Part shown: positions 172-61,653 of the stretch, piece after piece
Numbering within the stretch: position 1 is the stretch's first letter
Layout: each line of letters begins with the position of its first letter
DNA from: Escherichia phage DK-13
Reading direction: 5' to 3' (one strand)
Sequence record: MT611523.1
Length of the DNA: 64,000 bases
Position numbers and translations under genes: made by a program
Notes under the pieces: generated by a model
Database searches by the model: none
Told to the model about the DNA's origin: nothing
Seen by the model: the letters and a program-made list of their open reading frames with translations, nothing else

Positions 172-428
172 TATGCAACCTTATTGAACATCGCCAGTTG
201 ATTAGGTTGTACAACCATAATTTCACGACGACCTTTTGCATTTGACACGTTCAGGTAGATGCCTTTGTTCATATCAGTTTCTTTATCATATACCGCAATT
301 TTATTGACAGTAAAGATTTTACCACGAATATTTGTAAATGCACATTCAAACGCTTTAGTCAGACCTGCTTCAGCAGCTTGAAGAGCAGACATTTCATATT
401 GTTGGCCAATTTCAAAAGAAGTAATCAT
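171..428 (-). CDS. hypothetical early protein (85 aa)
   Basis: ATG 426-428 lies 7 nt after GAGGA; ORF-track start at 476 is an in-frame read-through of the conserved leader (STTDEDNKM artefact). Confidence 0.5.
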   Translation of the reverse strand: MITSFEIGQQYEMSALQAAEAGLTKAFECAFTNIRGKIFTVNKIAVYDKETDMNKGIYLNVSNAKGRREIMVVQPNQLAMFNKVA

Positions 429-459
429 TTTGTTATCCTCATCAGTAGTTGATGAGATG

Positions 460-488
460 ATTATGTCTCTTTCCATTGGCCTTGTACA
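460..488 (-). promoter_or_regulatory. sigma70-type early promoter with class-A leader
   Basis: minus-strand -35 TGTACA (483-488), 17-nt spacer, -10 CATAAT (460-465), then conserved CATCAACTACTGATGAGGA leader carrying the SD. Confidence 0.5.
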
Positions 489-495
489 CTACTTT

Positions 496-3029: not shown

Positions 3030-3776
3030 TTAACCTCTAATCAGTTTAAAAATTGACGCGTTCAAAGGTAGACCACGTTTCAGTTTTAATTTACCAATAA
3101 AACCAATCTTCTCAAAACGCTCAAGACCTTGAATGATTTTATCATAGCAATCAAAAAGCGTTTCAGCATCAGTTAATTTCTTGGTAACTTTCCAGTCATT
3201 ACCTTTGAGCAGGACATTCAATTTAGTAAGCTCATGTCCTTCCGCAACACGGGAACCATCAATGCGAGCCTTCAGAGCAACCATTTTTAATTGGTTTTCT
3301 TTGGACTGCTCTGATTTACTCATTTGAGCATAATGCTTAACGCGATTATCACGTTTGTGCTGGATGTTCTTGATATGAGTATATGACTTTTTAATCTGTT
3401 CCCATTTCTCTGAAGTCAGATTTAACTTTTCAATCTTCTTGGCAGAGGGGCGAGCAATTTTTACAGCAACATCATCGCGACGTTGTTTAAGCTCATCCAG
3501 GGACCAATCAGAACGCATGGTATTGTATTTCTTTTTAACAGGAATAACATTACCCTTGATATAACCAATATCATTGTTAAAACGCTCTAATGATAACTTC
3601 TCACCTTCAATAGAGTTATTAAATGCTTCACCAGAATAGGCACAAACTTTTTGGTCAAGAATGTTAACCAGGTAATTGAAATCCAGGTTAAAGTCTTTAC
3701 CGCGGCGTTTAGCGGAAGCTTGAGTGTGTTCCAAACGACGTTTAACTTTCAGCGTTTTGGTTTTTGATAAAGTCAT
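3030..3776 (-). CDS. hypothetical early protein (248 aa), in the T4 srd position
   Basis: ATG 3774-3776; own class-B promoter upstream; lysine-rich; srd assignment is by position and size only. Confidence 0.5.
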   Translation of the reverse strand: MTLSKTKTLKVKRRLEHTQASAKRRGKDFNLDFNYLVNILDQKVCAYSGEAFNNSIEGEKLSLERFNNDIGYIKGNVIPVKKKYNTMRSDWSLDELKQRRDDVAVKIARPSAKKIEKLNLTSEKWEQIKKSYTHIKNIQHKRDNRVKHYAQMSKSEQSKENQLKMVALKARIDGSRVAEGHELTKLNVLLKGNDWKVTKKLTDAETLFDCYDKIIQGLERFEKIGFIGKLKLKRGLPLNASIFKLIRG

Positions 3777-3822
3777 GATATTTTTCTCATCTTACGGACG
3801 ATTGAAAACTCAGTATGGATTC

Positions 3823-3850
3823 ATTATATACTATTCATCTTTTATGTACA
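3823..3850 (-). promoter_or_regulatory. sigma70-type early promoter with class-B leader
   Basis: minus-strand -35 TGTACA (3845-3850), 16-nt spacer, -10 TATAAT (3823-3828), leader GAATCCATACTGAGTT. Confidence 0.5.
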
Positions 3851-3932
3851 CTACTTTTTCACCTTTAACGCTTTTATTTTTACTGTGTATAATGGTTCTA
3901 AGGTCTTTGGCCTTTTGTTAACCCAGAATACT

Positions 3933-4547
3933 TCAGTAAGAAAGAACGGAAAGATTCCATAATTTATAGTCTTCCCATCTATAAATGCTCTCAATAGAGT
4001 CCACGCGTAGCGTAGTTCCCGCAGGGAACATCATCTCATCTTCATCATTTACTAATTGCAAGTTTGAAGAACGAGTTATTTCAGGATATAGTCCGTTGAA
4101 CTCTTCAGGAGGTGCCGCACAAATCATTTTAAAAATCGCTTCCTGATAATCAAATGCGAATGGTGCATCATTAATACAGAAAATATTTTTGGTTCCATAG
4201 AAGCTAAAGGAAGCAAAGTTACGCGCAACACTGAAATCTTTGGAGAAACTCATTACACGGTCAAACTCAATCGTAGCACCAACACATCCTACGGTTTCAA
4301 GATATGCCAAAGTTTTCTTAGAAATCCCGCGATATAACTTACCAGGCACAGCAGAAGTCAAATTCTTACGAATAATTTTGTTCAAAGTTTCCTGGATAGT
4401 GTCTGGCTTATTTTCCATACACTGCCAGAGTGTACTCTGTTCCAACTCAGAGTAAATTTCATCAATTTCAATCTGGGTATTTTCACGAAAATATTCACAT
4501 TTAACTGCATTGATGTACTCTGCTAATTGGTGACTTGCGTACAGCAT
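3933..4547 (-). CDS. modA: ADP-ribosyltransferase, ModA-like
   Basis: about 204 aa from ATG 4545-4547; LYRG ... SFSKDFSVARNF ... E-rich motif set shared with adjacent paralogue; T4 modA/modB position; ORF-track start 4580 is a leader read-through. Confidence 0.6.
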   Translation of the reverse strand: MLYASHQLAEYINAVKCEYFRENTQIEIDEIYSELEQSTLWQCMENKPDTIQETLNKIIRKNLTSAVPGKLYRGISKKTLAYLETVGCVGATIEFDRVMSFSKDFSVARNFASFSFYGTKNIFCINDAPFAFDYQEAIFKMICAAPPEEFNGLYPEITRSSNLQLVNDEDEMMFPAGTTLRVDSIESIYRWEDYKLWNLSVLSY

Positions 4548-4578
4548 TTTATTATCCTCATCAGTAGTTGATAGGAAC

Positions 4579-4608
4579 ATCTTAACGTGTCTTATTGCTC
4601 TTGTACAC
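4579..4608 (-). promoter_or_regulatory. sigma70-type early promoter with class-A leader
   Basis: -35 TGTACA (4603-4608), -10 TAAGAT-like at 4579-4585, conserved CCTATCAACTACTGATGAGGA leader. Confidence 0.45.
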
Positions 4609-5152
4609 AGTCAAGAACATAATAATCACCAACAAATCCAGCATCAACTATCACGAATTTCTGGTCAACTGGAACAAACCATTCAAGCTCAGAATCAATC
4701 ATGTCCATGTATTCTTCACGTCTTAACGTTGCCGCCTGTTCGGAACCAGAAGCTGTATTGAAGAATTCCAGTGGAACATCAAGCGCGAGCTTACGCATTA
4801 CATCATGGTAACAAAAAGCTTTTGTCTGATTCAATCTGACGATAGTCCTTGTCACATATTCCATTGCAGCAAAATCCCTGGCAATACCATAGTCTTCTGT
4901 AAAGGAGGTTATCCTTCCAAATTCAAAAGGTTGCATTGATTCTTTTGCTTCATCTAACAAATCAATCTCTTGCTGGGTCACCCCACGATACAAGACTGTA
5001 TCAGGTATAGACAACCTTGACTTGATGATTGAGTTAACGTTTGAATGCAAGGTCTTATCAACCTTTGATGTGCGGCATTCAAATAATGAAGCTATCTCCA
5101 TTTCACTAAATTTTAACTGGTTGGGTTCGGTATCAGATTTGATGATGTTCAT
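4592..5152 (-). CDS. modB: ADP-ribosyltransferase, ModB-like
   Basis: 186 aa; paralogous to the ModA-like ORF (LYRGV ... TSFTEDYGIARDFA). Confidence 0.55.
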   Translation of the reverse strand: MNIIKSDTEPNQLKFSEMEIASLFECRTSKVDKTLHSNVNSIIKSRLSIPDTVLYRGVTQQEIDLLDEAKESMQPFEFGRITSFTEDYGIARDFAAMEYVTRTIVRLNQTKAFCYHDVMRKLALDVPLEFFNTASGSEQAATLRREEYMDMIDSELEWFVPVDQKFVIVDAGFVGDYYVLDCVQEQ

Positions 5153-5208
5153 AATGGCCTCTCTGTTGTAAGAAAGACCATTATGTCATTAGGAGGGGAG
5201 TAAGTAAA

Positions 5209-6785: not shown

Positions 6786-6979
6786 AGGAAACCACGTTTA
6801 AATTCAACTTTACCATCATCACAACGGATTTCAATATTGAATTCTAAAGAATCATCATCGTGCATCATAAACGAGTGCACGACAACCTCGTCAAACACAC
6901 CCAGACCATACTTAAAATGTACATCATGGGCAATAACTTCGTCTAAAGTTTTGTTCGGTTTAATCCAACGGTTTAACAT
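6782..6979 (-). CDS. hypothetical protein (65 aa)
   Basis: ATG 6977-6979 preceded by class-A-type leader (TATCTCAACTACAGAGGAG). Confidence 0.4.
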   Translation of the reverse strand: MLNRWIKPNKTLDEVIAHDVHFKYGLGVFDEVVVHSFMMHDDDSLEFNIEIRCDDGKVEFKRGFL

Positions 6980-7021
6980 AGTATTCTCCTCTGTAGTTGA
7001 GATAATTATACCATCTCTATT

Positions 7022-7050
7022 AAAAGCAAAAAGGGAACCCGAAGGTTCCC
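7022..7050 (-). terminator. rho-independent terminator downstream of soc
   Basis: GGGAACC-CGAA-GGTTCCC hairpin followed by T-run on the minus strand. Confidence 0.55.
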
Positions 7051-7328: not shown

Positions 7329-7332
7329 CTGC

Positions 7333-7566
7333 TTATTTTATCATAACCTTTTTAGTTAAAAGCTCGTCGGGATGCCTTCTGGCGTATGAAGGGCTTTCTT
7401 TTACTGGGGTATTTGAAATAACATCACTTAATTTATCAGCTCTAGCTTTTAATTCTACGTGTTCTTTTGAATCTTTAAAAGGATGACTAATTATTTGCAA
7501 ATTAAGACCATGTAATTCATATTTAAGCCCTTCCATAAATCTTGCTGGGCACCCGTAATTATTCAT
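7333..7566 (-). CDS. hypothetical protein (77 aa)
   Basis: co-oriented ORF between HNH gene and soc. Confidence 0.3.
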   Translation of the reverse strand: MNNYGCPARFMEGLKYELHGLNLQIISHPFKDSKEHVELKARADKLSDVISNTPVKESPSYARRHPDELLTKKVMIK

Positions 7567-8407
7567 TTTCGAACCTCTTTACCATGTTTATATAATTTTC
7601 GTCTGGATAACCTAAACTAACTGCTAACTTTCTAAAATTCACATATTTAGGTTTGTTATTACTAAGCCATAAATCTCTAAGCTCAATTTCATAATTCCAT
7701 TTAAGCTGGTTTCCTCTAGCAGTTTTGCTCAAAGTTTTTCCTTTATCTTTTAGAGCTTTTTCCGAAGACTGTTTTAATTTTTGGAGATTTAAAACTTCCT
7801 CAACAGATAAATTATTTTCTTCTGCATAGCGCGCACAAAAATCTTTTACTGTAGCTATTAGACAGTTTTTGTGGGTACCTAAAACTTCCGGATTATTTTC
7901 TTCAACCAAAACTCCCCAGTATCTTCGATAGCGAGGCATATCCCGCGAAATCCAGTCATTATACCAGAAATCAAAATTAGAATACATAAAGGATTTTCTT
8001 TTACGGAGAATGTCTTGCTCTATCCACTCCCCGCGTTTATCGGCCCATAACTTAATAGTAAGGTCTTTCTCTAAATCAGAAAGCTTCTTAAACTGGGCAC
8101 TATTTGTTAGTGTCATTCTCTGGAATGCATTAAGCAAACCCAACACCCGAGTTGAGCACAAAAGATAATGAACATATATGTGTTGGTATATAGGAAGATA
8201 CACCCTATTCCAAGGAGAGATTTTAAAATCGCTGTATTCTGGAAATGCACACTTCGGAAGTATATGATGAGCTTCCGTTTTAGATTTGGTATGGACGTTT
8301 AGTTTATACTTATCTATAATTTTTAAGTAATCATCTAAAAGTTCCCATTGCGGGAACTTTTCTTTAAGAACGGATTTGAAATTAATATCCATTGTCCTGA
8401 CGTTCAA
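7559..8407 (-). CDS. HNH homing endonuclease (Mob-like), freestanding
   Basis: TEAHHILPK HNH core motif; sits at the gene 56/soc junction where T4 carries segF; 5' end overlaps gene 56 so exact start is uncertain. Confidence 0.75.
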   Translation of the reverse strand: MNVRTMDINFKSVLKEKFPQWELLDDYLKIIDKYKLNVHTKSKTEAHHILPKCAFPEYSDFKISPWNRVYLPIYQHIYVHYLLCSTRVLGLLNAFQRMTLTNSAQFKKLSDLEKDLTIKLWADKRGEWIEQDILRKRKSFMYSNFDFWYNDWISRDMPRYRRYWGVLVEENNPEVLGTHKNCLIATVKDFCARYAEENNLSVEEVLNLQKLKQSSEKALKDKGKTLSKTARGNQLKWNYEIELRDLWLSNNKPKYVNFRKLAVSLGYPDENYINMVKRFENE

Positions 8408-9221: not shown

Positions 9222-9362
9222 CCAGTAAGAAAAGCCCATGATGTTTCTCTGTGGAACTTACTGGTTGTGCCTATCGCTGCAACACAAGGGGTGCACTTAC
9301 CTCAGGTCACAACGGAACATATCCATTCCATCATCGGTTACTTTACCGGAATCCCTTCCTAA
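9222..9362 (+). pseudogene. start-less, rearranged partial copy of the 8982-9179 gene
   Basis: translation ...LWNLLVVPIAATQGVHLPQV aligns with ...LWNFVVAPIALAHGVILPVV of the upstream gene; no start codon; preceded by a copy of that gene's 3' end. Confidence 0.35.
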
Positions 9363-10108
9363 ACTTTTGCGTACTTCCAAAAATGGCCGTTTGACCTATA
9401 CATTCGGCCTGTCTTTTTATTTCTTTTACAAGCTGTGTATATATTTTGAGTATTGCCCGCCAATTGTAATAATTCCTTTGCCTCAGCTCCCGAATTATAC
9501 TTTTCAAGTATATTACCAAATTCATCGCATCTACAAACCGGTGTTCCAGTTGCCTTTCGGCATGCTTCTCGGCGCAACTTTTTCGTTTCTTCGGTTTGCG
9601 GATTTTCTTTAAATCGTCTCATTTGTGCATCGCGATTCTTTTGCCGTTGTTCATCAGTAATTGGATTATTTTGATAATACAATTTTAATGAGTTGGCTAT
9701 TTTGCTTTTGGTTTTATCAGACGCAGGGTGGTCGTTATGTCGCTTGTGTAAAGCAATTAACATTTTGTCTTTAAACTCGGATTGACTCCATAAGTTTGAC
9801 ATATGTTCACTAACGGCTTTACTATGTTCTTTTCGCATCCATTCATATTTTGCGCTATCAAATTTGTCACCACACATCCGGTGTATAGCAAACATTAATT
9901 TAGAAAGTCGATAAATTTTAAAAAGTAACAAATGCGCAATAAAATGTTCTCTTGCTGATAACAATACCAAATTATCTTCGGTGTCAGGCCCACCCAAACA
10001 CCTTGGTAGTATATGATGGGACTCCGTATAAAATGGGATATTCTTTTTGTTTAGGCCCCTTGCGAGGCCTTTGTCTATTAATTTATTATATAATTTTAGA
10101 TAATTCAT
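9359..10108 (-). CDS. HNH homing endonuclease (Mob-like), freestanding
   Basis: ESHHILPRCLGG ... N ... H HNH motif; ATG overlaps gene 61 stop (ATGA). Confidence 0.8.
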   Translation of the reverse strand: MNYLKLYNKLIDKGLARGLNKKNIPFYTESHHILPRCLGGPDTEDNLVLLSAREHFIAHLLLFKIYRLSKLMFAIHRMCGDKFDSAKYEWMRKEHSKAVSEHMSNLWSQSEFKDKMLIALHKRHNDHPASDKTKSKIANSLKLYYQNNPITDEQRQKNRDAQMRRFKENPQTEETKKLRREACRKATGTPVCRCDEFGNILEKYNSGAEAKELLQLAGNTQNIYTACKRNKKTGRMYRSNGHFWKYAKV

Positions 10109-11133
10109 ATTTTTGCATATTTGGATAATCGAAGTTTTGCCATTAAACCTTGTGCAATATTATCATTCATATAGGCTTCAATTTGCTCAGGCGTTGCTCC
10201 TTCCGATTTAATCATTTCATTTATATCTTTCGTATGCCACGGTGCATTGTCCCAGAACATAACAGCTTCTCCTGCATCGACTAATTTCTTCATACGTTTA
10301 ATTGTATCAGGATGTCTTGCTTCTGAATCCATCACCCATACTCTGGTTTCTGGATAAGGAACAGCTTCCAATGACAATGTTCCACCAGTTATCGCAATGC
10401 TGTTAGGGATAAACAAACTATCAATCGGACCTTCCATTACCCATACACGTTTACGCTCATCAATCTTGTCTACGCCATAGACTTTGGAAGCTTCTGGGTG
10501 AGCTTTGATTGTGATATATTTTTGTGGTGCATCTTTGCGAAGAGCTCGTCCTTGGAAAGATTCGATTTCTTTTTTGCCGTTGAAGATAGGAATAACCAAG
10601 CGTGGTTCATTCGTTTCATTCTTATACGTCCCAGGATTAACGGAGTTAACTAATGCGGGCCATTGGTTTGTAAACCATAACCGGTTCCAAACATTGCTCG
10701 GAATACACCGACTTTTTACATACTTAACTATCGGATGCGCTTCTGGTAAAGTATCGAGTCTTTCACAAAAAGCAAGCTGCTCAATAACCGGAGTTTTTTC
10801 TGGTTCTTTCGGAGTTTCAATGACTTCATTGCGTTGTCGCCCGAAGGCGTTCTCCTTATACTTCTCAACCATATATTCCCGGTGTAAATCCGGCTCAAAC
10901 TCTTTTATGTATTTGCTTATATGCGTGGAGTAGTCACAGTTAAAACATTTCACGTAAACCGCACCATCAGCCGGATTAGTATACGCCCAGAATCGAGCCT
11001 TGTGTGAATCTTTCTGGGAGTCCCCACAAACCTTGCAACGACAGTTTGCTTTAAATGTGCTCCCGGTGACTTCTCTATAACGTGGTTGATACGATAAAGC
11101 TCTGACTGCAAATTCTTTATCAATATATGACAT
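10105..11133 (-). CDS. 61: DNA primase gp61
   Basis: 342 aa; N-terminal CxxC...CxxC zinc ribbon and TOPRIM-like core; T4 gene order 56-61-41. Confidence 0.9.
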   Translation of the reverse strand: MSYIDKEFAVRALSYQPRYREVTGSTFKANCRCKVCGDSQKDSHKARFWAYTNPADGAVYVKCFNCDYSTHISKYIKEFEPDLHREYMVEKYKENAFGRQRNEVIETPKEPEKTPVIEQLAFCERLDTLPEAHPIVKYVKSRCIPSNVWNRLWFTNQWPALVNSVNPGTYKNETNEPRLVIPIFNGKKEIESFQGRALRKDAPQKYITIKAHPEASKVYGVDKIDERKRVWVMEGPIDSLFIPNSIAITGGTLSLEAVPYPETRVWVMDSEARHPDTIKRMKKLVDAGEAVMFWDNAPWHTKDINEMIKSEGATPEQIEAYMNDNIAQGLMAKLRLSKYAKI

Positions 11134-12535: not shown

Positions 12536-12829
12536 TTATTCACCTGTAACCCATTGAACAATTTTGCTATTGTCAAATGAAGCATCGCAATACAGAACAT
12601 AGTTATACTGCATAACGTCACCAGAAGTCAATTTGTCAGATACTTCTTTAACCATATCAGGGCGGTCACGTTTAGTTATGTTCATAATATCAGCATAAAT
12701 CTGATGTTCAACATCAGTCTGGTCGGCAGTCATAGACCACTCACAAAGGTCTTTATCAAGTCCAGCAGTAACTGGAGCTGTACCACATGATGCTACGGTA
12801 AGAATTGCCGCGATTAATAACTTTTTCAT
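12536..12829 (-). CDS. secreted lipoprotein/periplasmic protein (97 aa), possibly Spackle-like
   Basis: signal peptide with lipobox-like VASC; T4 sp position between 61 and 41; own class-A promoter. Confidence 0.45.
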   Translation of the reverse strand: MKKLLIAAILTVASCGTAPVTAGLDKDLCEWSMTADQTDVEHQIYADIMNITKRDRPDMVKEVSDKLTSGDVMQYNYVLYCDASFDNSKIVQWVTGE

Positions 12830-12857
12830 TTCAATCTCCTCAGTAGTTGATAGGGAT

Positions 12858-12886
12858 AATATACAGCATTATCCCTTTGTTGTACA
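12858..12886 (-). promoter_or_regulatory. sigma70-type early promoter with class-A leader
   Basis: -35 TGTACA (12881-12886), 17-nt spacer, -10 TATATT; leader CCCTATCAACTACTGAGGAG. Confidence 0.5.
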
Positions 12887-13126
12887 CTATTTTAATGCAT
12901 CTTCCAGATAAATTTTGCGGAATTTGCGTTTTGTCTGACGAATCTGACGCTTGGTAGGTTTCACAGGAAATTCGAAGAACTCTACGTATTCTTGTTCATA
13001 ATCATTGTGGCCGACTGAAAGAACTAGTTCCCAGCTGCTTACGGTGCGTTGGATAAACATATTATGCTTACCAAAAGATTTATTCCAAAAAGAACTAGGG
13101 GTAGGTTTCATTAATGCGATATTCAT
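12887..13126 (-). CDS. small basic protein, PTKRQIR paralogue 2 (79 aa)
   Basis: VKPTKRQIRQTKRKFRK C-terminal motif. Confidence 0.45.
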   Translation of the reverse strand: MNIALMKPTPSSFWNKSFGKHNMFIQRTVSSWELVLSVGHNDYEQEYVEFFEFPVKPTKRQIRQTKRKFRKIYLEDALK

Positions 13127-13330: not shown

Positions 13331-13648
13331 TTAGATTTCCTCGCAGAAGGCCCAGGCAGCGTGATAAACTGTTGCGCCTTTAGTATCATTTAAACAAACC
13401 ACGTCAACCGGTGCAATCACACGATAAAGACGGGGTTCTCCTCCATATGAGCGAGCTGCTCTTCCTGCATAGATACGTGCCAAACCAATATCTTCAGTAA
13501 AAAACACACGCCCTAAATTTTTCTTACGCCCAACTTCTGACAGAACACCAGTTGCATCAGGAGGGCAAAGCATATTTTGGATTCCAGCATTAGAGCTTGA
13601 CCCATGATAATAAACTTTGTATTCTGCCTTGCAATCAATGGTTTTCAT
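13331..13648 (-). CDS. small Arr-like ADP-ribosyltransferase-fold candidate (105 aa)
   Basis: YYHGSS ... FFTED ... GGEPRLYRV pattern resembles minimal Arr-type ART motifs; first gene after gene 41 where T4 has dmd. Confidence 0.3.
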   Translation of the reverse strand: MKTIDCKAEYKVYYHGSSSNAGIQNMLCPPDATGVLSEVGRKKNLGRVFFTEDIGLARIYAGRAARSYGGEPRLYRVIAPVDVVCLNDTKGATVYHAAWAFCEEI

Positions 13649-13674
13649 TTTATTCTCCAGTAGTTGATAGGGTC

Positions 13675-13703
13675 ATTATAACATAAGAAAAAGGGGCTGT
13701 AAG
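13675..13703 (-). promoter_or_regulatory. early promoter with class-A leader
   Basis: -10 TATAAT at 13675-13680; -35 lies inside the terminator hairpin; leader GACCCTATCAACTACTGGAG. Confidence 0.4.
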
Positions 13704-13708
13704 CCCCT
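13686..13708 (-). terminator. rho-independent terminator downstream of gene 41
   Basis: AGGGGCT-GTA-AGCCCCT hairpin followed by T-run on minus strand. Confidence 0.55.
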
Positions 13709-17541: not shown

Positions 17542-17780
17542 TTTGATTCCTTGATGATAATTACTTGTGCGTTTGATTTACGTTCAGCAACGAGTGCCCA
17601 GATAAATGCAATAAACCATCCGACCATTGTCCAACCTAACAGAAGGTTAACAAAGAAGATTCCGCAATTACTTTTGGTACCACGCAGCAGCGCGATAATC
17701 CACGGCAGAAAATATGCCAGTGCAGCCAGGAAGAAAGAACCAGCCCCAAGAACAACAGTACCCGCAATTAATGTTTCCAT
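17538..17780 (-). CDS. imm: superinfection immunity membrane protein Imm-like
   Basis: 80 aa, two TM segments, LLGWTMVGWFIAFIWAL motif; T4 imm position adjacent to gene 43. Confidence 0.6.
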   Translation of the reverse strand: METLIAGTVVLGAGSFFLAALAYFLPWIIALLRGTKSNCGIFFVNLLLGWTMVGWFIAFIWALVAERKSNAQVIIIKESK

Positions 17781-17817
17781 TTTAATATCCTTAAGTTATT
17801 CATCAGTTGATGAGGTA

Positions 17818-17847
17818 ATCATACGGCAATCCATTGCCGTTGTAAAC
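17818..17847 (-). promoter_or_regulatory. early promoter (-35 GTTTAC / -10 TATGAT) with class-A leader
   Basis: T4-like GTTTAC -35 at 17842-17847, 18-nt spacer, TATGAT, leader TACCTCATCAACTGATGA. Confidence 0.5.
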
Positions 17848-20649: not shown

Positions 20650-20877
20650 TTAAATTTCTATTATACGACGTTCGATAGTCGGATTACCATTTTCATCTTT
20701 AGTTCTAACCATAGCCTGGAAGACTCTCTGTCCAGGATGCAATAATTTATTGAGTTCCTTTTGAAATTCTATTTGAAGTTCTTCGGAAAGGTCAAAAATG
20801 GTTTGAGTTGGGGAAAGTCCATATATTTCTTTAAGGCGTTCACATGTTTCAATTTCATGCTTCATATCAATTACCAA
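20650..20877 (-). CDS. hypothetical protein (75 aa) inserted between regA and 43
   Basis: co-oriented ORF; 5' end overlaps regA 3' end by 11 nt. Confidence 0.4.
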   Translation of the reverse strand: MVIDMKHEIETCERLKEIYGLSPTQTIFDLSEELQIEFQKELNKLLHPGQRVFQAMVRTKDENGNPTIERRIIEI

Positions 20878-21235
20878 TTGTATATTTGGCTACGAGCTTC
20901 CAGTCATCTTTTTGTTTGAATGAGATAACACGGAAGTTATTTGTTACTGCGAACAATTCATTATGCTCTTCTTCTTTGATAGCGATTAAGCCCCAGTCTT
21001 CGAGCAATTGGGCGATGGAATCACGGCGCTGATAGTCTTCGCCGTCAATATCCACCTGACGACCATCCATGCGCAGCATTTCTTTGAAGTGAACAATATA
21101 ATAACGACCTTGCTTCTGGAGGATGTGGCAGCTCTGGTACAGCACACGGTCTTTATTATTTGCGATGCCCATACGGGTCAGAGTTTCTTTAACTTTCAGG
21201 AAGTCTTCAGGTTGCTTTAATGTAATTTCAATCAT
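20867..21235 (-). CDS. regA: translational repressor RegA
   Basis: 122 aa; MIEITLK...FRVISFKQK...KYTIGN closely matches T4 RegA. Confidence 0.9.
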   Translation of the reverse strand: MIEITLKQPEDFLKVKETLTRMGIANNKDRVLYQSCHILQKQGRYYIVHFKEMLRMDGRQVDIDGEDYQRRDSIAQLLEDWGLIAIKEEEHNELFAVTNNFRVISFKQKDDWKLVAKYTIGN

Positions 21236-23979: not shown

Positions 23980-24198
23980 TTAATCAAAGTATTCATATGC
24001 AAACCAGGCATTGTGTCTGTTCGCGATTATTTTAACATATTCTTCACCGAAAGCGTTTTGTAAGTCACGTTCAGTAACAAGGTGTTCATCTTTCGAAAAG
24101 GTATTAACTAACACATATCGTTTAATTTCAGGGACAGCCAGTAAATGCTGCCCGGTTAAAAAATTGCTCATAAATAATATTATCCGTTGCAGTATCAA
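23980..24198 (-). CDS. hypothetical protein (72 aa)
   Basis: co-oriented ORF. Confidence 0.35.
   Translation of the reverse strand: MILQRIILFMSNFLTGQHLLAVPEIKRYVLVNTFSKDEHLVTERDLQNAFGEEYVKIIANRHNAWFAYEYFD
24169..24176 (+). promoter_or_regulatory. late-promoter-like CATAAATA
   Basis: CATAAATA 35 nt upstream of plus-strand HNH ATG. Confidence 0.3.
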
Positions 24199-24211
24199 AC
24201 AAGGGTCTGAT

Positions 24212-24928
24212 ATGAATTATAACATCATTTACCAAAAGCTTATTAGCAGAGCATTGAATCGCAAATTAACCACATACTCTGAAAGTCATCACATTATACC
24301 CCGTTGCATGGGTGGGGCAGACGACGCTTCAAATCTTGTTGATTTAACTCCCGAGGAACATTTCGTTTGTCATCAACTGTTGGTCAAAATGCATCCAAAT
24401 AATGCTTCTTTGGTCTATGCCGCGCGCATGATGACAGTTTCCTCACCAAACGCCGACAGAAGCAAAAACAAATTATTTGGATGGCTTCGTCGTAAAAACT
24501 TGGAAGCTCAACAAAATAAAATTTTCTCCGATGAAACCAGAAAGAAAATGTCAGAATCCGCCAAATTAAAACCGAGAGTTGAATGTCCACACTGTGGAAA
24601 AACCGGTCTCGTTGGCAATATGAATCGTTGGCATTTTGATAACTGTTCCAAAGGTCCAAACAAGGTTGTTCATACTATTCCAGAAAAACAAAAGCAAAAA
24701 ATTTCAGTAGGATTAAAACAAGCTAAACATGAAATTTTAACTTGTGAATTTTGTGGTCTTGAAGGTAAAAAGTGTGTTATATCCACTCACCAACAATTCT
24801 GCAAATCCAATCCAAACCGGAAGAAAAAGGTGGACCCCAAAATTCAGTGTCCACATTGTAATGTAGTCGGTACGCCAGCCAATATGAAACGTTGGCATTT
24901 TGATAACTGCAAAATGAAGCCTCAATAA
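24212..24928 (+). CDS. HNH homing endonuclease with C-terminal zinc-finger repeats, plus strand
   Basis: SESHHIIPRCMGG...N...H HNH core; three CxxC-x(n)-W/HxFDNC repeats; ATG 24212 chosen (ORF track starts at 24011). Confidence 0.75.
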   Translation: MNYNIIYQKLISRALNRKLTTYSESHHIIPRCMGGADDASNLVDLTPEEHFVCHQLLVKMHPNNASLVYAARMMTVSSPNADRSKNKLFGWLRRKNLEAQQNKIFSDETRKKMSESAKLKPRVECPHCGKTGLVGNMNRWHFDNCSKGPNKVVHTIPEKQKQKISVGLKQAKHEILTCEFCGLEGKKCVISTHQQFCKSNPNRKKKVDPKIQCPHCNVVGTPANMKRWHFDNCKMKPQ

Positions 24929-24933
24929 GAGGC

Positions 24934-26616
24934 TCATTCCAGAACAGTAAATCGACCGACTTTTTTCATTTGAAGATGCTGTCCATATGCTTCTGGGTCG
25001 TGTTCACGATGGCTAATGATAAACACGTTTTGACCTTCCAATTTATTAATAATTGCCTGGATAGCTTTGATGCCTTCGGCGTCAGTGGCTGAATCCATGA
25101 CCTCATCCAGAATCAACGTACTAATTTGCACACCAGATACTTTCGCAGCAATATCACGCCATGTAAACAGCAATGCGATATCGATACGAGCTTTTTCACC
25201 CTGGCTAAATGATGCATAGCTGAAGTCTTCACGTCCACGAGATTTAATCGTTTCGTTGAACTCTTCATCTAACGTAAAACTATAATCAGCTTCCATAACT
25301 TTAAGATAAGCGTTTATCTGCTTATTAAAGATAGGAATATATTTCTTAATAATCGCGCCCTTAATACCAGAATCTTTCAACATATCCGTTAAGATACCAC
25401 GTTGATATTTTTCCATCACAAGGTCGGATTTTTGTTTGACTATTTTATCAAGCTGGTCTTGAAGCATTTTAATGTCTGCTGCATGGTCAATAAATTCCGA
25501 CTTAGCTTGCTCGATTAATGCTTTAACCTTTTTAGCTTTTTCGACAGTCTGGACTAAGGTTTGTTTCTTAGTTTGAATGTCTTGAGCTATTGTACGCTGG
25601 TTTTGTCTTGCCTTGGTATACGCATCAAATTGCTCTTGAACAGCATTCTGGCGAGCTTTATGCTTATCAGCTGATGCATTACATTCTTCAATCTTTGACT
25701 CAATCCTGGCGACAATGGGGTCTCCTGGATGCAACTGACTGGCACAAGTCTGACAACAACCACCTTTCTCGTACAGACCAACAACCTTTCGGTAATCGTC
25801 TATCTTCGACTTAATCAGGAATGATTCCTGCTTTAACTTCGTGAGTTCATGCTCAGGGTCTTCTCCCAAGATTATCTCGGTCAGTCTTGTTGTTGCTTCT
25901 TCGATAGTCGTCTTGATTCCACGTGCTTCTGTGGCAAGTTCATCATACATCGTTTGCAGCCGCAACAGATTATCACCTGATAATTTTCTTTGACGGTCTT
26001 CGTTGTCCTGATAGATTTTAATCTGTTGAACAATACCATCATGCTGCACATCCATCACCTGGATTTGACTATTGACTTCACGGATAAGAGATTTGTTCAG
26101 CTTATCCATATCGGCCAGTACAGAAACCTCTAAAAGGTCTTCGACGAGTTTTCTTCTTGCAGGAGTGGATAGGCCCATAAAAGGGGTATATCCAGCTGTG
26201 CCGAGTACGACAATCTGTTTGAAGCTTGCGTAGGACATTCCAATGAGCTGTTCAAATTCCGCTTGGAAGTCTTTACTGCTGGCAGATTCATCAAGACGTT
26301 TACCGCCACAAGAGATTTCAAAAACATTGGGTTTTTGCCCGCGTTTGATATAGTATTCTTTTCCATCATATTCCATCCACAATTCAACGAGCATATCTTT
26401 TTTGTTGCTCGAGTTAATCAACTGGCCTTTCTTTACATCACGGAAAGGCTTACCGAACATAGCAAAGGTAACCGCTTCAAGGAACGTAGATTTACCCGCA
26501 CCATTCTTGCCGGTGACCAGAGTTTTTTGGACTTTATCCAGTTCAACAGTAATCGGTTGAGCACCAACCGACATAATATTTTTATAGATAACTTTCTTAA
26601 GCTTAAAAGTCTTCAC
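24934..26616 (-). CDS. 46: recombination nuclease subunit gp46 (Rad50/SbcC-like)
   Basis: 560 aa; Walker A GKNGAGKST, zinc hook GGCCQTC, Walker B LILDEVMD. Confidence 0.92.
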   Translation of the reverse strand: MKTFKLKKVIYKNIMSVGAQPITVELDKVQKTLVTGKNGAGKSTFLEAVTFAMFGKPFRDVKKGQLINSSNKKDMLVELWMEYDGKEYYIKRGQKPNVFEISCGGKRLDESASSKDFQAEFEQLIGMSYASFKQIVVLGTAGYTPFMGLSTPARRKLVEDLLEVSVLADMDKLNKSLIREVNSQIQVMDVQHDGIVQQIKIYQDNEDRQRKLSGDNLLRLQTMYDELATEARGIKTTIEEATTRLTEIILGEDPEHELTKLKQESFLIKSKIDDYRKVVGLYEKGGCCQTCASQLHPGDPIVARIESKIEECNASADKHKARQNAVQEQFDAYTKARQNQRTIAQDIQTKKQTLVQTVEKAKKVKALIEQAKSEFIDHAADIKMLQDQLDKIVKQKSDLVMEKYQRGILTDMLKDSGIKGAIIKKYIPIFNKQINAYLKVMEADYSFTLDEEFNETIKSRGREDFSYASFSQGEKARIDIALLFTWRDIAAKVSGVQISTLILDEVMDSATDAEGIKAIQAIINKLEGQNVFIISHREHDPEAYGQHLQMKKVGRFTVLE

Positions 26617-31774: not shown

Positions 31775-31947
31775 AATTTAATTTCCTTAGCTACTGAACA
31801 AAATACACCACGGTCACAAATCATTTTAATATTAAGGTCAATTATGGTATACCACACATCCAGGCTAGATATTTCAGTTACTAGAACAGCTTTGCCGTTG
31901 ATTGAATAATACTGGTTGACTTTAATTTCTTTATCTTGGATAGTCAT
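31771..31947 (-). CDS. small protein (58 aa)
   Basis: ATG 31945-31947 directly after class-A leader; stop overlaps next ATG. Confidence 0.4.
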   Translation of the reverse strand: MTIQDKEIKVNQYYSINGKAVLVTEISSLDVWYTIIDLNIKMICDRGVFCSVAKEIKL

Positions 31948-31978
31948 TATGTTTTCCTCATCAGTAGTTGATGGGATA

Positions 31979-32007
31979 ATGATACATCATTCAAAGGGGC
32001 TTGTACA
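31979..32007 (-). promoter_or_regulatory. early promoter with class-A leader; -35 sits in a hairpin loop
   Basis: -35 TGTACA (32002-32007) inside the AGGGG...CCCCT hairpin, 17-nt spacer, -10 TATCAT, leader CCCATCAACTACTGATGAGGA. Confidence 0.5.
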
Positions 32008-32015
32008 CCCCTTTT

Positions 32016-41917: not shown

Positions 41918-42442
41918 TTATGCGAGAACCGTCTTTAAACGCTCTTCAAACTTCTGAAGGAGTACCTGGCGCTCTGCTCTTTGTTTGGTATAGGTTTCAA
42001 TACGCTCTGAAGTGAGATTGTATTGTTCATTAACTGATTCCCGCATGAATTCAGGAATCTCTTTACATGCTTTGATTTCATTGAACTTATCAAGCACCGC
42101 TTGTTGTTCAGCAATCAGACCATCATAATATTGGATATCTGATTTGATGTTTTGTACATCAGATTCAGTAGGCATATTTTTCTTCGCTCTTGCCGCTTGA
42201 TATTCTGCATTAGTCTCTCTTGACCAGAACAAAGAGCGGTTTTTGTTGGTGTTTTTATACACATCAACAATACCAACTGAATCAACAGTCGCAATCCAGT
42301 TCCAGGCGTTTTTATAAGTCTGACCACCTGATACTGTAATCTCACCCGCACAAGCAACATCATTAAAGAACTTACTTTGTGCTTCTGATTTAAAATTACC
42401 ATTATTGTAATTAATCAGATTAAAGATTGATTTGGCTTCCAT
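41918..42442 (-). CDS. hypothetical protein (174 aa)
   Basis: ATG 42440-42442 after class-B leader. Confidence 0.45.
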   Translation of the reverse strand: MEAKSIFNLINYNNGNFKSEAQSKFFNDVACAGEITVSGGQTYKNAWNWIATVDSVGIVDVYKNTNKNRSLFWSRETNAEYQAARAKKNMPTESDVQNIKSDIQYYDGLIAEQQAVLDKFNEIKACKEIPEFMRESVNEQYNLTSERIETYTKQRAERQVLLQKFEERLKTVLA

Positions 42443-42478
42443 TTTATTCTCCAGTATTTGGTAACTCAGTATGGGAAC

Positions 42479-42508
42479 ATTATACGTCTATCCCCATACT
42501 ATGTACAC
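42479..42508 (-). promoter_or_regulatory. early promoter with class-B leader
   Basis: -35 TGTACA (42503-42508), -10 TATAAT (42479-42484), leader CCATACTGAGTTACCAAATACTGGAG. Confidence 0.5.
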
Positions 42509-42819: not shown

Positions 42820-43026
42820 TCACTTGCGACGACGTTTTGGTAATGGTTTAGGGAAGAACATTGCTTTACCTGCAGGGGTCAAAGTCACACGCAAAGCATT
42901 ACCAATACCAAGGGATGCTTTAACCAGACCTTTGGCTTTTAACTCACCAAATGCTTGACGTTGTTCAGGGTCACGAGTGTTAACCATCAGACCTTTTTCA
43001 CCAGCAGCTTTGATTAATTCTAACAT
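42820..43026 (-). CDS. small basic protein (68 aa)
   Basis: ATG after class-B leader; C-terminal KPLPKRRRK tail. Confidence 0.4.
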   Translation of the reverse strand: MLELIKAAGEKGLMVNTRDPEQRQAFGELKAKGLVKASLGIGNALRVTLTPAGKAMFFPKPLPKRRRK

Positions 43027-43067
43027 TTTATTCTCCGTTTGTTTATTTGGTAACTCAGTATGGAATC

Positions 43068-43096
43068 ATTATGCCTCATGACCATCTGGTTGTACA
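43068..43096 (-). promoter_or_regulatory. early promoter with class-B leader
   Basis: -35 TGTACA (43091-43096), 17-nt spacer, -10 CATAAT (43068-43073), leader GATTCCATACTGAGTTACCAAATAAAC. Confidence 0.5.
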
Positions 43097-43143
43097 CATA
43101 TACTAAATAAAAATACTTAATAAAACCATAAAGGAGAAAGTTT

Positions 43144-47137: not shown

Positions 47138-47340
47138 TATTCCACCACATATGATAATGAGAAAATTGCTGATGAAAGATGGGTAGCATCTTCTTCACAC
47201 AGTTCAAATGGAGCTTTCTGTAAGAGTTCAACCACTTCTTCATCAGTGGCACTGTCCATAAAGATTGCATAATTATTAAGATAGATAACAACCTCATCAC
47301 CAGTATTAACTGCATCAATCTTGATATTTTTAATTCTCAT
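47137..47340 (-). CDS. hypothetical acidic protein (67 aa)
   Basis: ATG directly after class-A leader (CCCATCAACTACTGAGGAG). Confidence 0.45.
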   Translation of the reverse strand: MRIKNIKIDAVNTGDEVVIYLNNYAIFMDSATDEEVVELLQKAPFELCEEDATHLSSAIFSLSYVVE

Positions 47341-47409
47341 TGTGTTCTCCTCAGTAGTTGATGGGATAATAGTACACCCTTTTTATGGTGATGTAAACCC
47401 CCTAAATGA

Positions 47410-47438
47410 AAAAAGGTCCACCCGAAGGCAGACCTTTT
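47410..47438 (-). terminator. rho-independent terminator
   Basis: GGTCTGCC-TTCG-GGTGGACC hairpin followed by TTTTT on minus strand. Confidence 0.5.
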
Positions 47439-50969: not shown

Positions 50970-51428
50970 TTAGATATAAATCACTTTTGTGCTAATTTTT
51001 CCTTCCAGACGATTAGAGTTAACAAACGCCATACGACAACACATGGTCGGAGACTTCCCAGGAATAGCGGGGTTAACTGTCATTCCTAACCACAGGTTCT
51101 TGTCCGTGATTTCCAGACGAAGTGGACGGTAGTTCACATTCGGGTCAATTTGTGCTTCAACTTCCGGGAGTGGTTTCATCTCCAAGAATTCAACGATTTC
51201 TTTTACATGTGGTGTGATTTTTCCAAACAAGTCAAAAACATATTGTTCATCAATTTCACGTTGGATTGCACGGTCCAACAGGTGTGGACTGTACTTAATG
51301 AAGAATGCCTCAAGGCCTGCTTCTTTACAAGCCTTGTTGATAGCATTATTAATTTTGAGGAACTCCGTTTCAAAAATGCGACGAAGTTTATTGCGGCGAA
51401 TGTAAACACTTGAATCGATAGTAGTCAT
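50970..51428 (-). CDS. regB: endoribonuclease RegB
   Basis: 153 aa from MTTIDSS; VYIRRNKLRR...KYS.HLLDRAIQREIDE.YVF collinear with T4 RegB; ORF-track start 51485 overlaps the promoter -35. Confidence 0.9.
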   Translation of the reverse strand: MTTIDSSVYIRRNKLRRIFETEFLKINNAINKACKEAGLEAFFIKYSPHLLDRAIQREIDEQYVFDLFGKITPHVKEIVEFLEMKPLPEVEAQIDPNVNYRPLRLEITDKNLWLGMTVNPAIPGKSPTMCCRMAFVNSNRLEGKISTKVIYI

Positions 51429-51455
51429 GATTATCTCCTTTTGTTTGATGGGATA

Positions 51456-51484
51456 ATCATAACTCATTTCAATCTGCTTGTACA
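51456..51484 (-). promoter_or_regulatory. early promoter with class-A-variant leader (regB)
   Basis: -35 TGTACA (51479-51484), 17-nt spacer, -10 TATGAT (51456-51461). Confidence 0.55.
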
Positions 51485-52064
<580 letters not shown>

Positions 52065-53624: not shown

Positions 53625-54030
53625 CAGCTTTCCCATAGTATTTGTACCAAGCAGGCTTTTGAGAAATTTTCTCATTCAGTCTGGCTTGACTGATTTCAAT
53701 TGACCAGATTGATGGTTGATAATCATTCTTCCATTCATCAGGAATATCAGTTAAATCTTGGGTAGAAATATCTTTTATGTTAAACCCTCGCTTTAAACAT
53801 TCCGCAATAAGTTCTTGATGCCGGTTTTTAAGGAACAAAAGCTTATCATAAAAGAAGGTGACATGACCAGTCCCTAAAAGGAAAGATGATGGGATTTTAA
53901 AGTCAGAAACCTTTTTACCATTTTGCACATGCTTACGAACAGCACCAAACACGCGAGGAAGCTCACGATATTCAGCCATAAGGTGTTGGTCAGCAAGTTC
54001 AGATACCAGGGTCAAATTAATGCGAGTCAT
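53614..54030 (-). CDS. denV: endonuclease V (pyrimidine-dimer DNA glycosylase)
   Basis: 138 aa, same length as T4 DenV; [12 protein letters not shown]...[10 protein letters not shown]-terminal catalytic region. Confidence 0.92.
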
Positions 54031-54056
54031 GTTTGTTCTCCGTAGTTGATAGGGTC

Positions 54057-54085
54057 ATTATAACCCTATCGTTTGGAGATGTACA
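54057..54085 (-). promoter_or_regulatory. early promoter with class-A leader (denV)
   Basis: -35 TGTACA (54080-54085), 17-nt spacer, -10 TATAAT (54057-54062), leader GACCCTATCAACTACGGAG. Confidence 0.55.
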
Positions 54086-54355
54086 TCATTTCTTAGAGTA
54101 TTGACCCATAAGTTTAGCGATATCACCCAATTTCTGATTAAACAAATAATCCACTTCTTTGCCAGATTTATCTACAATTTGCCACTGGCCATTTCCTTTG
54201 TTACCAAAGGTCCAATCACCAACTTTAAATGAAGTTCCATTAACTTTTTTAATAGAAGTAAACTCAAAGCCTTCTTTCTTAGCTAAAAATGCCATGCGGC
54301 TTTCATCTGATTCATTTAATACAGATTCAGCCAAAAATTCTTGATACGTTTTCAT
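54086..54355 (-). CDS. internal (head) protein with capsid-targeting sequence, IPII-like
   Basis: starts MKTYQEFLAESVLNE; 89 aa. Confidence 0.6.
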   Translation of the reverse strand: MKTYQEFLAESVLNESDESRMAFLAKKEGFEFTSIKKVNGTSFKVGDWTFGNKGNGQWQIVDKSGKEVDYLFNQKLGDIAKLMGQYSKK

Positions 54356-56836: not shown

Positions 56837-56863
56837 AATATTTTCCTCATTGATTGTGGGACC

Positions 56864-56892
56864 ATTGTGTCATAGCCCCACTTGGATGTACA
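56864..56892 (-). promoter_or_regulatory. early promoter with class-A-variant leader
   Basis: -35 TGTACA (56887-56892), 17-nt spacer, -10 CACAAT, leader ...CAATCAATGAGGA. Confidence 0.45.
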
Positions 56893-56895
56893 CAA

Positions 56896-57855: not shown

Positions 57856-57883
57856 AATATTTTCCTCATTAGTTGACGAGATA

Positions 57884-57912
57884 ATGATACTACGTTTCTT
57901 TAGACTTGTATA
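57884..57912 (-). promoter_or_regulatory. early promoter with class-A leader
   Basis: -35 TATACA (57907-57912), 17-nt spacer, -10 TATCAT, leader TCTCGTCAACTAATGAGGA. Confidence 0.45.
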
Positions 57913-57956
57913 CTAAATCTTGTACATAATTTTCTTATCACATCCTTGTGATTAAA

Positions 57957-58402: not shown

Positions 58403-58411
58403 TTTTATTCC

Positions 58412-58899: not shown

Positions 58900-58908
58900 A
58901 ACGTTTCC

Positions 58909-61060: not shown

Positions 61061-61126
61061 GGTATTTCCTTCAGTTGGTTAATATTTTATTATCCAATGT
61101 TTTATTGTGTAACTCAGTATGGAATC

Positions 61127-61155: not shown

Positions 61156-61167
61156 CCCCCTTTTGAA

Positions 61168-61611: not shown

Positions 61612-61653
61612 TTTATTATCCCGTTTGTTTATTTGGTAACTCAGTATGGAATC

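Follow-up and report, generated by a model that had tools for sequence, protein, structure and literature searches.

The sequence repeated upstream of early genes in Escherichia phage DK-13 (sequence record MT611523.1) is very probably a cassette for early-gene expression, and phage T4's early promoters are its homologues. It adds one more example to three kinds of element already described: early promoters of the T4 type, ribosome sites of the RegB type and cassettes resembling PeSLs (PeSL, promoter-early stem-loop). Its sequence anatomy, its conservation across genera, its consensus matches, the lack of structure in its leader and its link with indel joints are directly observed, in the window (the whole stretch of 64,000 nucleotides that was analysed) and in its comparison with other phages.

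By megablast, the window belongs with the Gaprivervirus genus of T4-like coliphages, the nearest records being vB_EcoM_RZ (RZ), MN01, ECML-359 and VR26, with about 92-97% identity in a mosaic pattern. Its genes are the early and middle ones of T4, running from dexA/dda to gene 43, nrdD, tk, regB, denV and e, and nearly all of them are encoded by the minus strand. Pfam searches confirmed Spackle (T4_Spackle), Imm (Imm_superinfect) and DenV, as well as the following two genes:

50970-51428, minus strand: regB, Pfam REGB_T4 (PF10715), E=2.2e-72, with its own cassette upstream.
20867-21235: regA, Pfam match.

Rfam and tRNA scans of the whole window gave no families and no tRNAs, respectively.

The typical class-A cassette is composed, in this order, of a -35 box (GTGTACA or GTTTACA), a 17-nt spacer, a -10 hexamer of the form TAnnAT, a C-rich discriminator of 6 nt and ATCAACTACTGA. 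A preliminary description of this DNA had claimed at least 12 copies on the minus strand, in which a sigma70-type early promoter is followed by a conserved transcribed leader ending in the Shine-Dalgarno (SD) sequence. All 12 listed sites are present, each of them directly 5' of an ORF start and with promoter-like hexamers and a leader, and the anatomy of the copies supports this arrangement. A GTTTAC-like -35 box, a spacer of 16-18 nt and a -10 of the form TAnnnT are found in 11 of the 12; the exception is the copy at 6987, which has only a TGn-extended -10. In most copies an A/T-rich (UP-like) tract, judged by eye, lies 5' of the -35 (aaaaagta, ttaaaata, aaagagta, aaataatt).

A generic sigma70 scan of the window had no discriminating power (68 sites vs 53.6 expected) and, therefore, a phage-specific pattern and a matrix were needed; enumeration of the motif by fuzzy regular expressions was too noisy. 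The matrix has 24 columns, covering the -10, the following 6 nt (discriminator) and positions +1 to +12. With a cut-off of at least 10 bits it gave 11 minus-strand sites in the window and none on the plus strand (shuffle mean 0.42). In the complete RZ genome the matrix found 18 sites; every one lies on the strand of the early genes, and the late structural blocks are free of them. A 23-mer search allowing up to three mismatches gave four matches in the window vs none in 100 shuffles. The class-A cassettes of the window, followed by the sister class B, are:

426-489, minus strand: class-A cassette of the gene downstream of dexA (positional equivalent of T4 motB.2), 31.6 bits, identical in RZ; -35 GTGTACA 489-483, -10 CATAAT 465-460, predicted +1 at 453, leader ATCAACTACTGATGAGGATAACAAA, ATG at 428.
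4545-4608, minus strand: class-A cassette of modA (the reported locus), within the 3' end of modB, 31.6 bits; -35 GTGTACA 4608-4602, -10 TAAGAT 4584-4579, predicted +1 at 4572, leader ATCAACTACTGATGAGGATAATAAA, ATG at 4547.
6977-7033, minus strand: degenerate class-A cassette of mrh.2, 11.1 bits, orthologous to the T4 mrh.2 promoter; terminator hairpin, TGn-extended -10 TATAAT 7010-7005, -35 absent, leader AACTACAGAGGAGAATACT, ATG at 6979.
12827-12887, minus strand: class-A cassette of sp (spackle), identified by the matrix and Pfam T4_Spackle; -35 GTGTACA, -10 TATATT 12863-12858, predicted +1 at 12851, leader ATCAACTACTGAGGAGATTGAA, ATG at 12829.
13646-13704, minus strand: class-A cassette of the ORF upstream of dmd, identified by the matrix, with a perfect RegB/S1 consensus; terminator hairpin GGGGCTTACAGCCCC overlapping the -35, -10 TATAAT 13680-13675, predicted +1 at 13668, leader ATCAACTACTGGAGAATAAA, ATG at 13648.
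17778-17847, minus strand: class-A variant of imm, identified by the matrix and Pfam Imm_superinfect; -35 GTTTACA, -10 TATGAT 17823-17818, predicted +1 at 17811, 31-nt leader ATCAACTGATGAATAACTTAAGGATATTAAA, ATG at 17780.
31945-32008, minus strand: class-A cassette of the 55.6 homologue, 37.1 bits, 23-mer with no mismatches; hairpin GGGGTGTACAAGCCCC with the -35 in its loop, -10 TATCAT 31984-31979, predicted +1 at 31972, leader ATCAACTACTGATGAGGAAAACATA, ATG at 31947.
47338-47398, minus strand: class-A cassette of a 67-aa ORF (T4 mobD.5 region), identified by the 23-mer and the matrix; -35 GTTTACA, -10 TACTAT 47374-47369, predicted +1 at 47362, leader ATCAACTACTGAGGAGAACACA, ATG at 47340; a terminator hairpin (47411-47438) lies just 5' of it.
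51426-51485, minus strand: divergent class-A cassette of regB, 22 bits; -35 GTGTACA, -10 TATGAT 51461-51456, predicted +1 at 51449, leader ATCAAACAAAAGGAGATAATC, ATG at 51428.
54028-54086, minus strand: class-A cassette of denV, identified by the matrix and Pfam, fold z -5.3; -35 ATGTACA, -10 TATAAT 54062-54057, predicted +1 at 54050, leader ATCAACTACGGAGAACAAAC, ATG at 54030.
56834-56893, minus strand: divergent class-A cassette of a 228-aa ORF; -35 GTGTACA, -10 CACAAT 56869-56864, leader ACAATCAATGAGGAAAATATT, ATG at 56836.
57853-57913, minus strand: class-A variant of a 319-aa ORF, 31.1 bits; -35 GTATACA, -10 TATCAT 57889-57884, leader GTCAACTAATGAGGAAAATATT, ATG at 57855.
3774-3851, minus strand: class-B cassette of srd, with the same promoter type and a leader that starts with ATACTGAGTT.
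42440-42508, minus strand: class-B cassette, leader ATACTGAGTTACCAAATACTGGAGAATAAA, perfect RegB/S1 consensus.
43024-43097, minus strand: class-B cassette whose upstream edge, 43097, is an indel joint vs MN01.
61609-61683, minus strand: class-B cassette, GGATAATAAAA.
61979-62051, minus strand: class-B cassette.

For annotation purposes, about 20 early transcription units are flagged in this way in the window. The leader had been called nearly invariant over about 25 nt. It is indeed conserved, but not to that degree: the exact 12-mer ATCAACTACTGA is found in five copies only (all five matches in the window lie on the minus strand), and the copies at 6987 (AACTACAGAGGAG), 51431 (ATCAAACAAAAGGAG) and 56841 (ACAATCAATGAGGA) are strongly divergent. 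Two sub-variants can be distinguished. The first one reads ...ACTGAGGAG, CTGGAG or ACGGAG, and carries GGAG but no hairpin; the second one reads ...ACTGATGAGGA(T/A), with an ATCA/TGAT inverted repeat and with GGAU or GGAA replacing GGAG.

In the 10 copies without gaps, the distance between the -10 hexamer and ATCAAC is exactly 6 nt, and the A of ATCAAC is consequently the seventh nucleotide past the -10. This A is the predicted +1 on account of the usual sigma70 geometry, of the early-promoter logos published for RB69, RB49 and 44RR, which have C at -3 to -1 (PMC1524935), and of the start of T4 Pe40.4, published at map unit 41,225 (PMC6024815), a position that in the T4 sequence is the seventh nucleotide past the Pe40.4 -10 hexamer. 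By analogy with T4 and RB69, transcription would thus start at the A of ATCAAC, in which case the conserved leader would be the complete 5'UTR, of 19-31 nt. In the proposed mechanism, host sigma70 RNA polymerase would recognise the A/T-rich upstream tract, the -35, the 17-nt spacer and the -10, and the RNA would begin at that A, right behind the C-rich discriminator. The cassettes also fix the true start codons; for instance, modA starts at 4547 and not at the ATG located within the -10 at 4580.

The cassette is shared with relatives. All 12 copies are found at the same positions in RZ, so that the objection of a motif lost in close relatives falls away. In T4, whose first 100 kb were scanned, the same leader is present at early promoters, and in RB69 leaders of the ATCAAC type are found at orthologous genes; the leader is therefore no peculiarity of the DK-13 genome. 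The T4 sequence lies at the +1 of GTTTACA-N17-TAnnAT promoters (trna.4, denV, nrdC.9, sp, imm.1 and e.8):

T4 trna.4: TACTAT taccct ATCAACTACTGAGGAGAATAAAATG
T4 denV: ATCAACTACAGGAGAACACTAAAATG
T4 nrdC.9: ATCAACTACGGAGGAAC
T4 sp: ATAAACTACTGAGGAG, leader ATAAACTACTGAGGAGATTATC
T4 long-leader set (imm.1, e.8, upstream of cef, nrdC.11): ATCAACTACTGATACAGAAAAnAACTTGGAGAATAAAATG

Positional orthology with T4 early promoters was found for sp, denV, regB, mrh.2 and the motB.2 position, and for modA via RB69, where the modB/modA junction also bears an early promoter with an ATCAACC leader. T4 early promoters (Pe) have in common with the DK-13 cassettes the A-rich upstream tract, a -35 of the GTTTAC type, the 17-nt spacer, the -10 TAnnAT, the start A 7 nt downstream and a +1 sequence ATCAACTACTGA followed by GGAG, and they serve the same genes (sp, denV, regB, mrh.2 and the gene after dexA). 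On the other hand, the -35 is mostly GTGTACA in DK-13 and GTTTACA in T4, the discriminator is TATCCC or GACCCT in the former and ACAACT in the latter, and TATAAT or TATCAT are commoner -10 hexamers than TACTAT in DK-13 when compared with T4. A 17-mer scan of IMG/VR added little: it hit 10 loci, and at least four of these lie on genome contigs of full length (about 170 kb). A full-text literature search with the motif sequence returned only unrelated papers.

In the T4 long-leader variants ATCAACTACTGAT is kept at the 5' side and GGAGAATAAAATG at the 3' side, the middle being variable and the SD lying 25 nt further downstream. Since the 5' piece remains with the start site and the SD piece with the AUG, the leader is made up of two modules. 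The first one would be the start-anchored AUCAACUACUGA, which is G-poor and unstructured. Our hypothesis is that this +1 to +12 module would most likely help the polymerase to initiate efficiently at, and to escape from, a very strong promoter, and would give the 30S subunit and S1 an unobstructed place to bind. The second module would be devoted to ribosome binding: GAGGAG or GGAG/GGAU plus an A-rich tract, with the GGA 10-11 nt before the AUG, which would double as the RegB/S1 recognition sequence. Cassette genes would then be transcribed and translated at once upon infection, and it is proposed that the short, open leader makes translation fast.

The cassettes are also associated with stem-loops and with sites of genome rearrangement. 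Promoter-proximal starts have more structure in their -70 to +3 regions than other starts do (median z -1.97 vs +0.15, p=4e-8), and half of the cassettes have a fold z below -2. Their stems overlap the -35, sit in the spacer or bracket the -10. Thus placed around the -10 are the stem GTGGGGCTAT/ATGGTCCCAC in the cassette 56834-56893 and, at denV, the nested inverted repeats TCTCC..GGAGA and GATAGGGT..ACCCTATC. Comparison with RZ, ECML-359 and MN01 gave 28 distinct indel or replacement events, nine of which have an edge within a cassette (p=0.022 in a binomial comparison with gene junctions, the cassettes accounting for 21 of about 135 gene junctions and for 2.8% of the bases). This enrichment over the gene-junction null is modest, and the intergenic gaps bearing promoters are also the longest ones. 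Joints lie at 12891 near the sp cassette (vs RZ), at 54085 and 54041 in the denV cassette, and within the cassette 57853-57913 (vs ECML-359 and MN01).

Several of these events involve whole cassette+ORF modules. RZ has two extra ones, inserted exactly at the 5' edge of the cassette 13646-13704, where MN01 also carries extra modules. One of the extra RZ cassettes is a chimera in which the promoter of 47338-47398 and the 3' part of 4545-4608 are joined within the shared leader. A 67-nt copy of the cassette 47338-47398, 97% identical, is found at a non-orthologous RZ site before an RZ-specific ORF, and the cassette+ORF unit lying between the class-B copies 61609-61683 and 61979-62051 is absent from the relatives. 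As a dispersed repeat of about 60 bp with stem-loops, the cassette is proposed to serve, as PeSLs do, as a joint for the homologous exchange of gene modules, and the cassettes point to such joints among Gaprivervirus phages.

PeSL elements (Arbiol 2010, PMC2839356; Comeau 2014, PMC4122927) are, like the cassettes described here, dispersed composite repeats of stem-loop, early promoter, SD and start codon; they lie mostly in variable early regions, at the joints of insertions, deletions and replacements, with crossovers between the -10 and the ATG. Unlike the present cassettes, they were defined in RB49/phi1 and have near-consensus TTGACA promoters and G/C stems, and the PeSL authors regard the T-even versions as analogues, not homologues. 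Recombination between copies, with excision of mini-circles, is a further property of PeSLs.

These data bear on a second explanation, according to which positions +1 to +12 have no sequence-specific function: recombination or gene conversion, together with transfer during T-even co-infection, would keep the repeat uniform, and selection would act only on the hexamers and the SD. The cassettes at indel joints, the chimeric cassettes, the recombination between PeSLs that has been shown experimentally (PMC2839356) and the variability of the leader among copies and orthologues all agree with it. However, if homogenisation were the cause, the whole cassette should move along, whereas the consensus of +1 to +12 is identical in T4 and DK-13 although the -35, -10 and discriminator consensus sequences differ; this argues for selection on the segment beyond homogenisation of the repeat. 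Besides, the module remains at +1 when the SD sits 25 nt further downstream, and the segment is markedly unstructured. Homogenisation as the sole explanation is thus considered unlikely. At the orthologous promoters of T4 and RB69, the gapless identity is 28% in the spacer, 43% in the discriminator, 67% in the -10 and 80% in the -35, but only 54% in +1 to +12, a point against the proposed role of this module.

The lack of structure is at odds with the preliminary description, in which the copies at 437, 4556 and 31956 contained a perfect 8-bp hairpin, CCTCATCA/TGATGAGG, that buried the SD. This hairpin is absent from all three copies. Their actual 5' arms are TCTCATCA (437), TCCTATCA (4556) and TCCCATCA (31956); pairing is continuous only in the 437 type, with a terminal U.G pair, and in the other two the third pair, counted from the outer end, is a C.A mismatch. 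Burial of the SD is for the most part unsupported as well, since the predicted primary transcript keeps 4 bp of the stem (AUCA/UGAU) and folds no better than shuffled sequences: RNAs taken from +1 have a dG of -1.2 to -2.1 kcal/mol and z of -0.1 to +0.6 relative to dinucleotide shuffles, and none of the 12 own-promoter leaders is more stable than -2.4 kcal/mol, their z being above 0. Read-through RNA that includes the -10 region does form a stem, with z from -1.5 to -4.1 (-4.1 at 437 and -2.6 at 31956). Because the outer half of the 5' arm lies 5' of +1, RNA made from the promoter of the cassette itself does not contain it. The hairpin is thus unable to control that mRNA and affects, at most, read-through RNA. 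Ribosome-site accessibility in the own-promoter RNAs is higher than in other genes (0.66 vs 0.57, p=0.0016), which fits a leader selected for openness.

It is accordingly very unlikely that the leader is an RNA operator in which an 8-bp hairpin (CCUCAUCA/UGAUGAGG) hides the SD, an RNA-binding repressor such as RegA controls translation, or both. The ATCA...TGAT inverted repeat is real in the TGATGAGGA sub-variant, RNA containing the -10 folds well at 437 and 31956, and a regA gene is present in the window. Nevertheless, besides the short stem and the shuffle-level folding of the primary transcript, the alignment of seven distinct TGATGAGGA-type copies from four phages contained no pair changed on both sides, one stem pair is C.A in five of the seven, and the 3' arm is wholly missing from 7 of the 12 class-A copies. 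The RegA SELEX consensus is an AU-rich operator resembling AAAAUUGUUAUGUAA and overlapping the AUG. Allowing up to three mismatches, it matched the window four times, vs 8.4 expected, and never at a cassette, which leaves the suggested repressor site without support.

A DNA operator at the start site has also been considered, with a host or phage protein bound to positions -1 to +12 and shutting off the early promoters. The sequence TATCAACTACTGA fits eight of the nine specified positions of the IHF core consensus WATCAANNNNTTR, and the motif overlaps the start site at many early promoters; the match is, however, imperfect at the key T, and the likeness lies mainly in ATCAA. The DNA of T-even phages is cytosine-modified, as established for T4, and this modification would affect recognition. 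Such an operator is judged very improbable, even though the mechanism by which T4 early promoters are shut off has been described as incompletely understood (PMC3014915, PMC2988021).

In T4, a strong RegB/S1 site is GG*AGRAYARAA, and RegB cleaves GGAG/U within early-gene ribosome sites, the SD of regB itself being one of its targets (PMC3014915). The idea of a RegB-type GGAG site, put forward in the preliminary description, is supported as far as the sequence consensus goes: the SD region fits the published consensus, regB is in the window, and GGAG or GGAU with at least five of the seven context positions (RAYARAA) is found at 11 of 22 promoter-proximal starts vs 5 of 116 others (Fisher p=3.5e-7). 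The distance from GGA to ATG is always 10-11 nt. Among the 12 class-A copies the tetranucleotide is GGAG in six, GGAU in three and GGAA in three (31956, 56841 and 57864), and the consensus is perfect at several copies, e.g. GGAGAATAAAA at 13648 and GGATAATAAAA at 4547. As in the RegB/S1 sites of T4 early mRNAs, GGAG/GGAU lies in the SD of early genes and is followed by an A-rich tract, and regB, whose own cassette carries GGAG, has this SD in T4 too. GGAA in three copies sets DK-13 apart from the described sites; GGAA is not a described RegB tetranucleotide, and these copies would escape RegB.

By analogy with T4 and RB69, the cassette transcripts would then be cleaved by RegB, and the messengers that it may inactivate can be predicted from them. 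RegB, itself produced from a cassette, would accumulate and, together with S1, inactivate the cassette mRNAs.

A further reading, a lead rather than a result and rather improbable as a whole, is that AUCAACUACUGA is a specific functional element and that, in addition, a subset of promoter cores mask their own SD/AUG on read-through RNA. With regard to its first half, T4 and DK-13 have the AUCAACUACUGA consensus in common, RB69 has variants of the ATCAAC type, and the module can be separated from the SD. It might act as an initial transcribed sequence optimised for leaving very strong promoters, or as a recognition site used in early shut-off. With regard to the second half, in 13 of 57 promoters (window, T4 and RB69) the promoter core's own pairing with the SD/AUG is among the best 10% of cross pairings (p=0.0036), although the overall shift in this own-vs-cross duplex comparison of promoter core and leader is not significant (Wilcoxon p 0.09-0.64), so that only a subset stands out. 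For promoter-proximal genes as a whole, accessibility drops more on read-through RNA (0.16 vs 0.06, p=0.02), yet the accessibility on read-through RNA is not itself below that of other genes (p=0.63) and masking is therefore no general property of them. It is strong only at modB, regB and the genes starting at 57855 and 31947.

The importance of the cassette would be greater should the module at the start site, or the hairpins embedded in promoters, prove regulatory, early shut-off in T-even phages still being described as incompletely understood. For genes of the masked type, only the early transcript from their own promoter would be translated, and on read-through RNA they would be silent. 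A comparable arrangement is known from T4 gene e, where a hairpin masks the ribosome site of a longer RNA and the RNA from the proximal promoter, which is devoid of the 5' arm, is translatable (PMC3014915). In the hairpins of the gene e/soc/49 type, as here, the promoter lies inside the hairpin, the promoter's own RNA is open and the longer RNA is masked; the internal promoter is late in those genes, whereas here it is early and the effect is strong at a subset of genes only. The clearest case is modB, with a hairpin of 14-15 bp and -18 to -20 kcal/mol whose sequence differs among DK-13, T4 and RB69. Its -10 pairs with the start-codon region as TATGAT/ATCATG in T4 and RB69 and as CATAAT/ATTATG here, so that both sides change together. 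The same logic is seen at regB, whose -10 and discriminator are complementary to the region from SD to AUG, and at denV, where the complementary pairs are TCTCCTGTAG/CTACAGGAGA (T4 orthologue) and TCTCCAGTAG/CTACTGGAGA.

The core of the promoter is complementary to the Shine-Dalgarno (SD) and start codon of its own gene at the following places in the window:

5150-5185, minus strand: modB start region, promoter/SD complementarity
51426-51462, minus strand: regB, pairing of the modB type
54028-54079, minus strand: denV, pairing of the modB type

In modB, the stretch from SD to AUG (AGAGAGGCCATTATG) is complementary to the -10 hexamer plus discriminator of the promoter (CATAATGGTCTTTCT; -20.2 kcal/mol), and equivalent hairpins of different sequence are present in modB of T4 and RB69, where TATGAT pairs with ATCATG. 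This difference is a compensatory change. The predicted effect is that modB RNA reading through from upstream, and no other, would have its ribosome site masked. The arrangement of regB (TTATGATTATC/GATAATCATG) and denV (TCTCC with GGAGA, plus GATAGGGT with ACCCTATC) appears, from the pairing segments, to follow the same logic as modB. However, in T4 regB it is the spacer, TTCCTCTTGAC, that pairs with GTTAAGAGGAG, and the counterparts are TCTCCTGTAG/CTACAGGAGA in T4 denV and TCTCCAGTAG/CTACTGGAGA in RB69 ORF040c.

The longest modA ORF (3933-4580) has its first ATG within the -10 hexamer (TAAGATG, 4580). This start is used in the RefSeq annotation of modA from the close relative vB_EcoM_RZ (RZ; 648 nt), whereas ECML-359 modA is annotated as a 615-nt form; the true start is likely the ATG at 4547, downstream of the SD. 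ORF 171-476 has the same start-codon problem, its true start being 428.

Besides class A (early promoter plus conserved leader ending in the SD), a second cassette family, termed class B, is found on the minus strand:

3774-3851, minus strand: class-B cassette
42440-42508, minus strand: class-B cassette
43024-43097, minus strand: class-B cassette
about 61058-61160, minus strand: class-B cassette
61609-61683, minus strand: class-B cassette
61979-62051, minus strand: class-B cassette

Class B shares the promoter type and has a C-rich discriminator, but differs in its leader. The class-B leader (30-40 nt, ATACTGAGTTACCAAATAAA...(C/A)(T/C)GGAGAATAAAATG) looks like that of class A without CAACT and with an inserted spacer. 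Most copies, with the exception of 3774-3851, carry the RegB/S1 cleavage consensus at the 3' end, and several coincide with indel joints between close relatives. Three segments missing from at least one close relative have no bordering cassette:

7329-8378: segment not bordered by a cassette
9233-10110: segment not bordered by a cassette
24163-24935: segment not bordered by a cassette

These are probably mobile endonuclease-type inserts. ORF 9359-10108 matches HNH weakly, and the homologue of this ORF in RZ carries the annotation homing endonuclease; no clear Pfam family was found for ORF 7559-8407 or the plus-strand ORF 24011-24928.

Class-A cassettes are also present in RZ (NC_070780; locus L020) at 80138, 80418 and 80727, preceding three consecutive internal-head-protein (IP) genes just past the window's right end. 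These positions fit an old observation on IP loci, namely that they are shuffled between repeats consisting of a conserved promoter and leader.

Upstream of the gene starting at 63185 (63185-63215, minus strand), a terminator hairpin is followed by TTTTTATAAATCAACTAAAGAGAAACGTATG, in which TATAAAT, similar to T4 late promoters, is joined to a class-A-like ATCAACTAAAGAG leader; a -35/-10 pair is absent there. At 57957-59199 (minus strand), a series of tandem small ORFs of about 70-96 aa carries at the 3' ends a near-identical ...GGGTGTCCTCCTCTT... tail directly preceding the next start codon, which gives them the look of a gene family that arose by tandem duplication.
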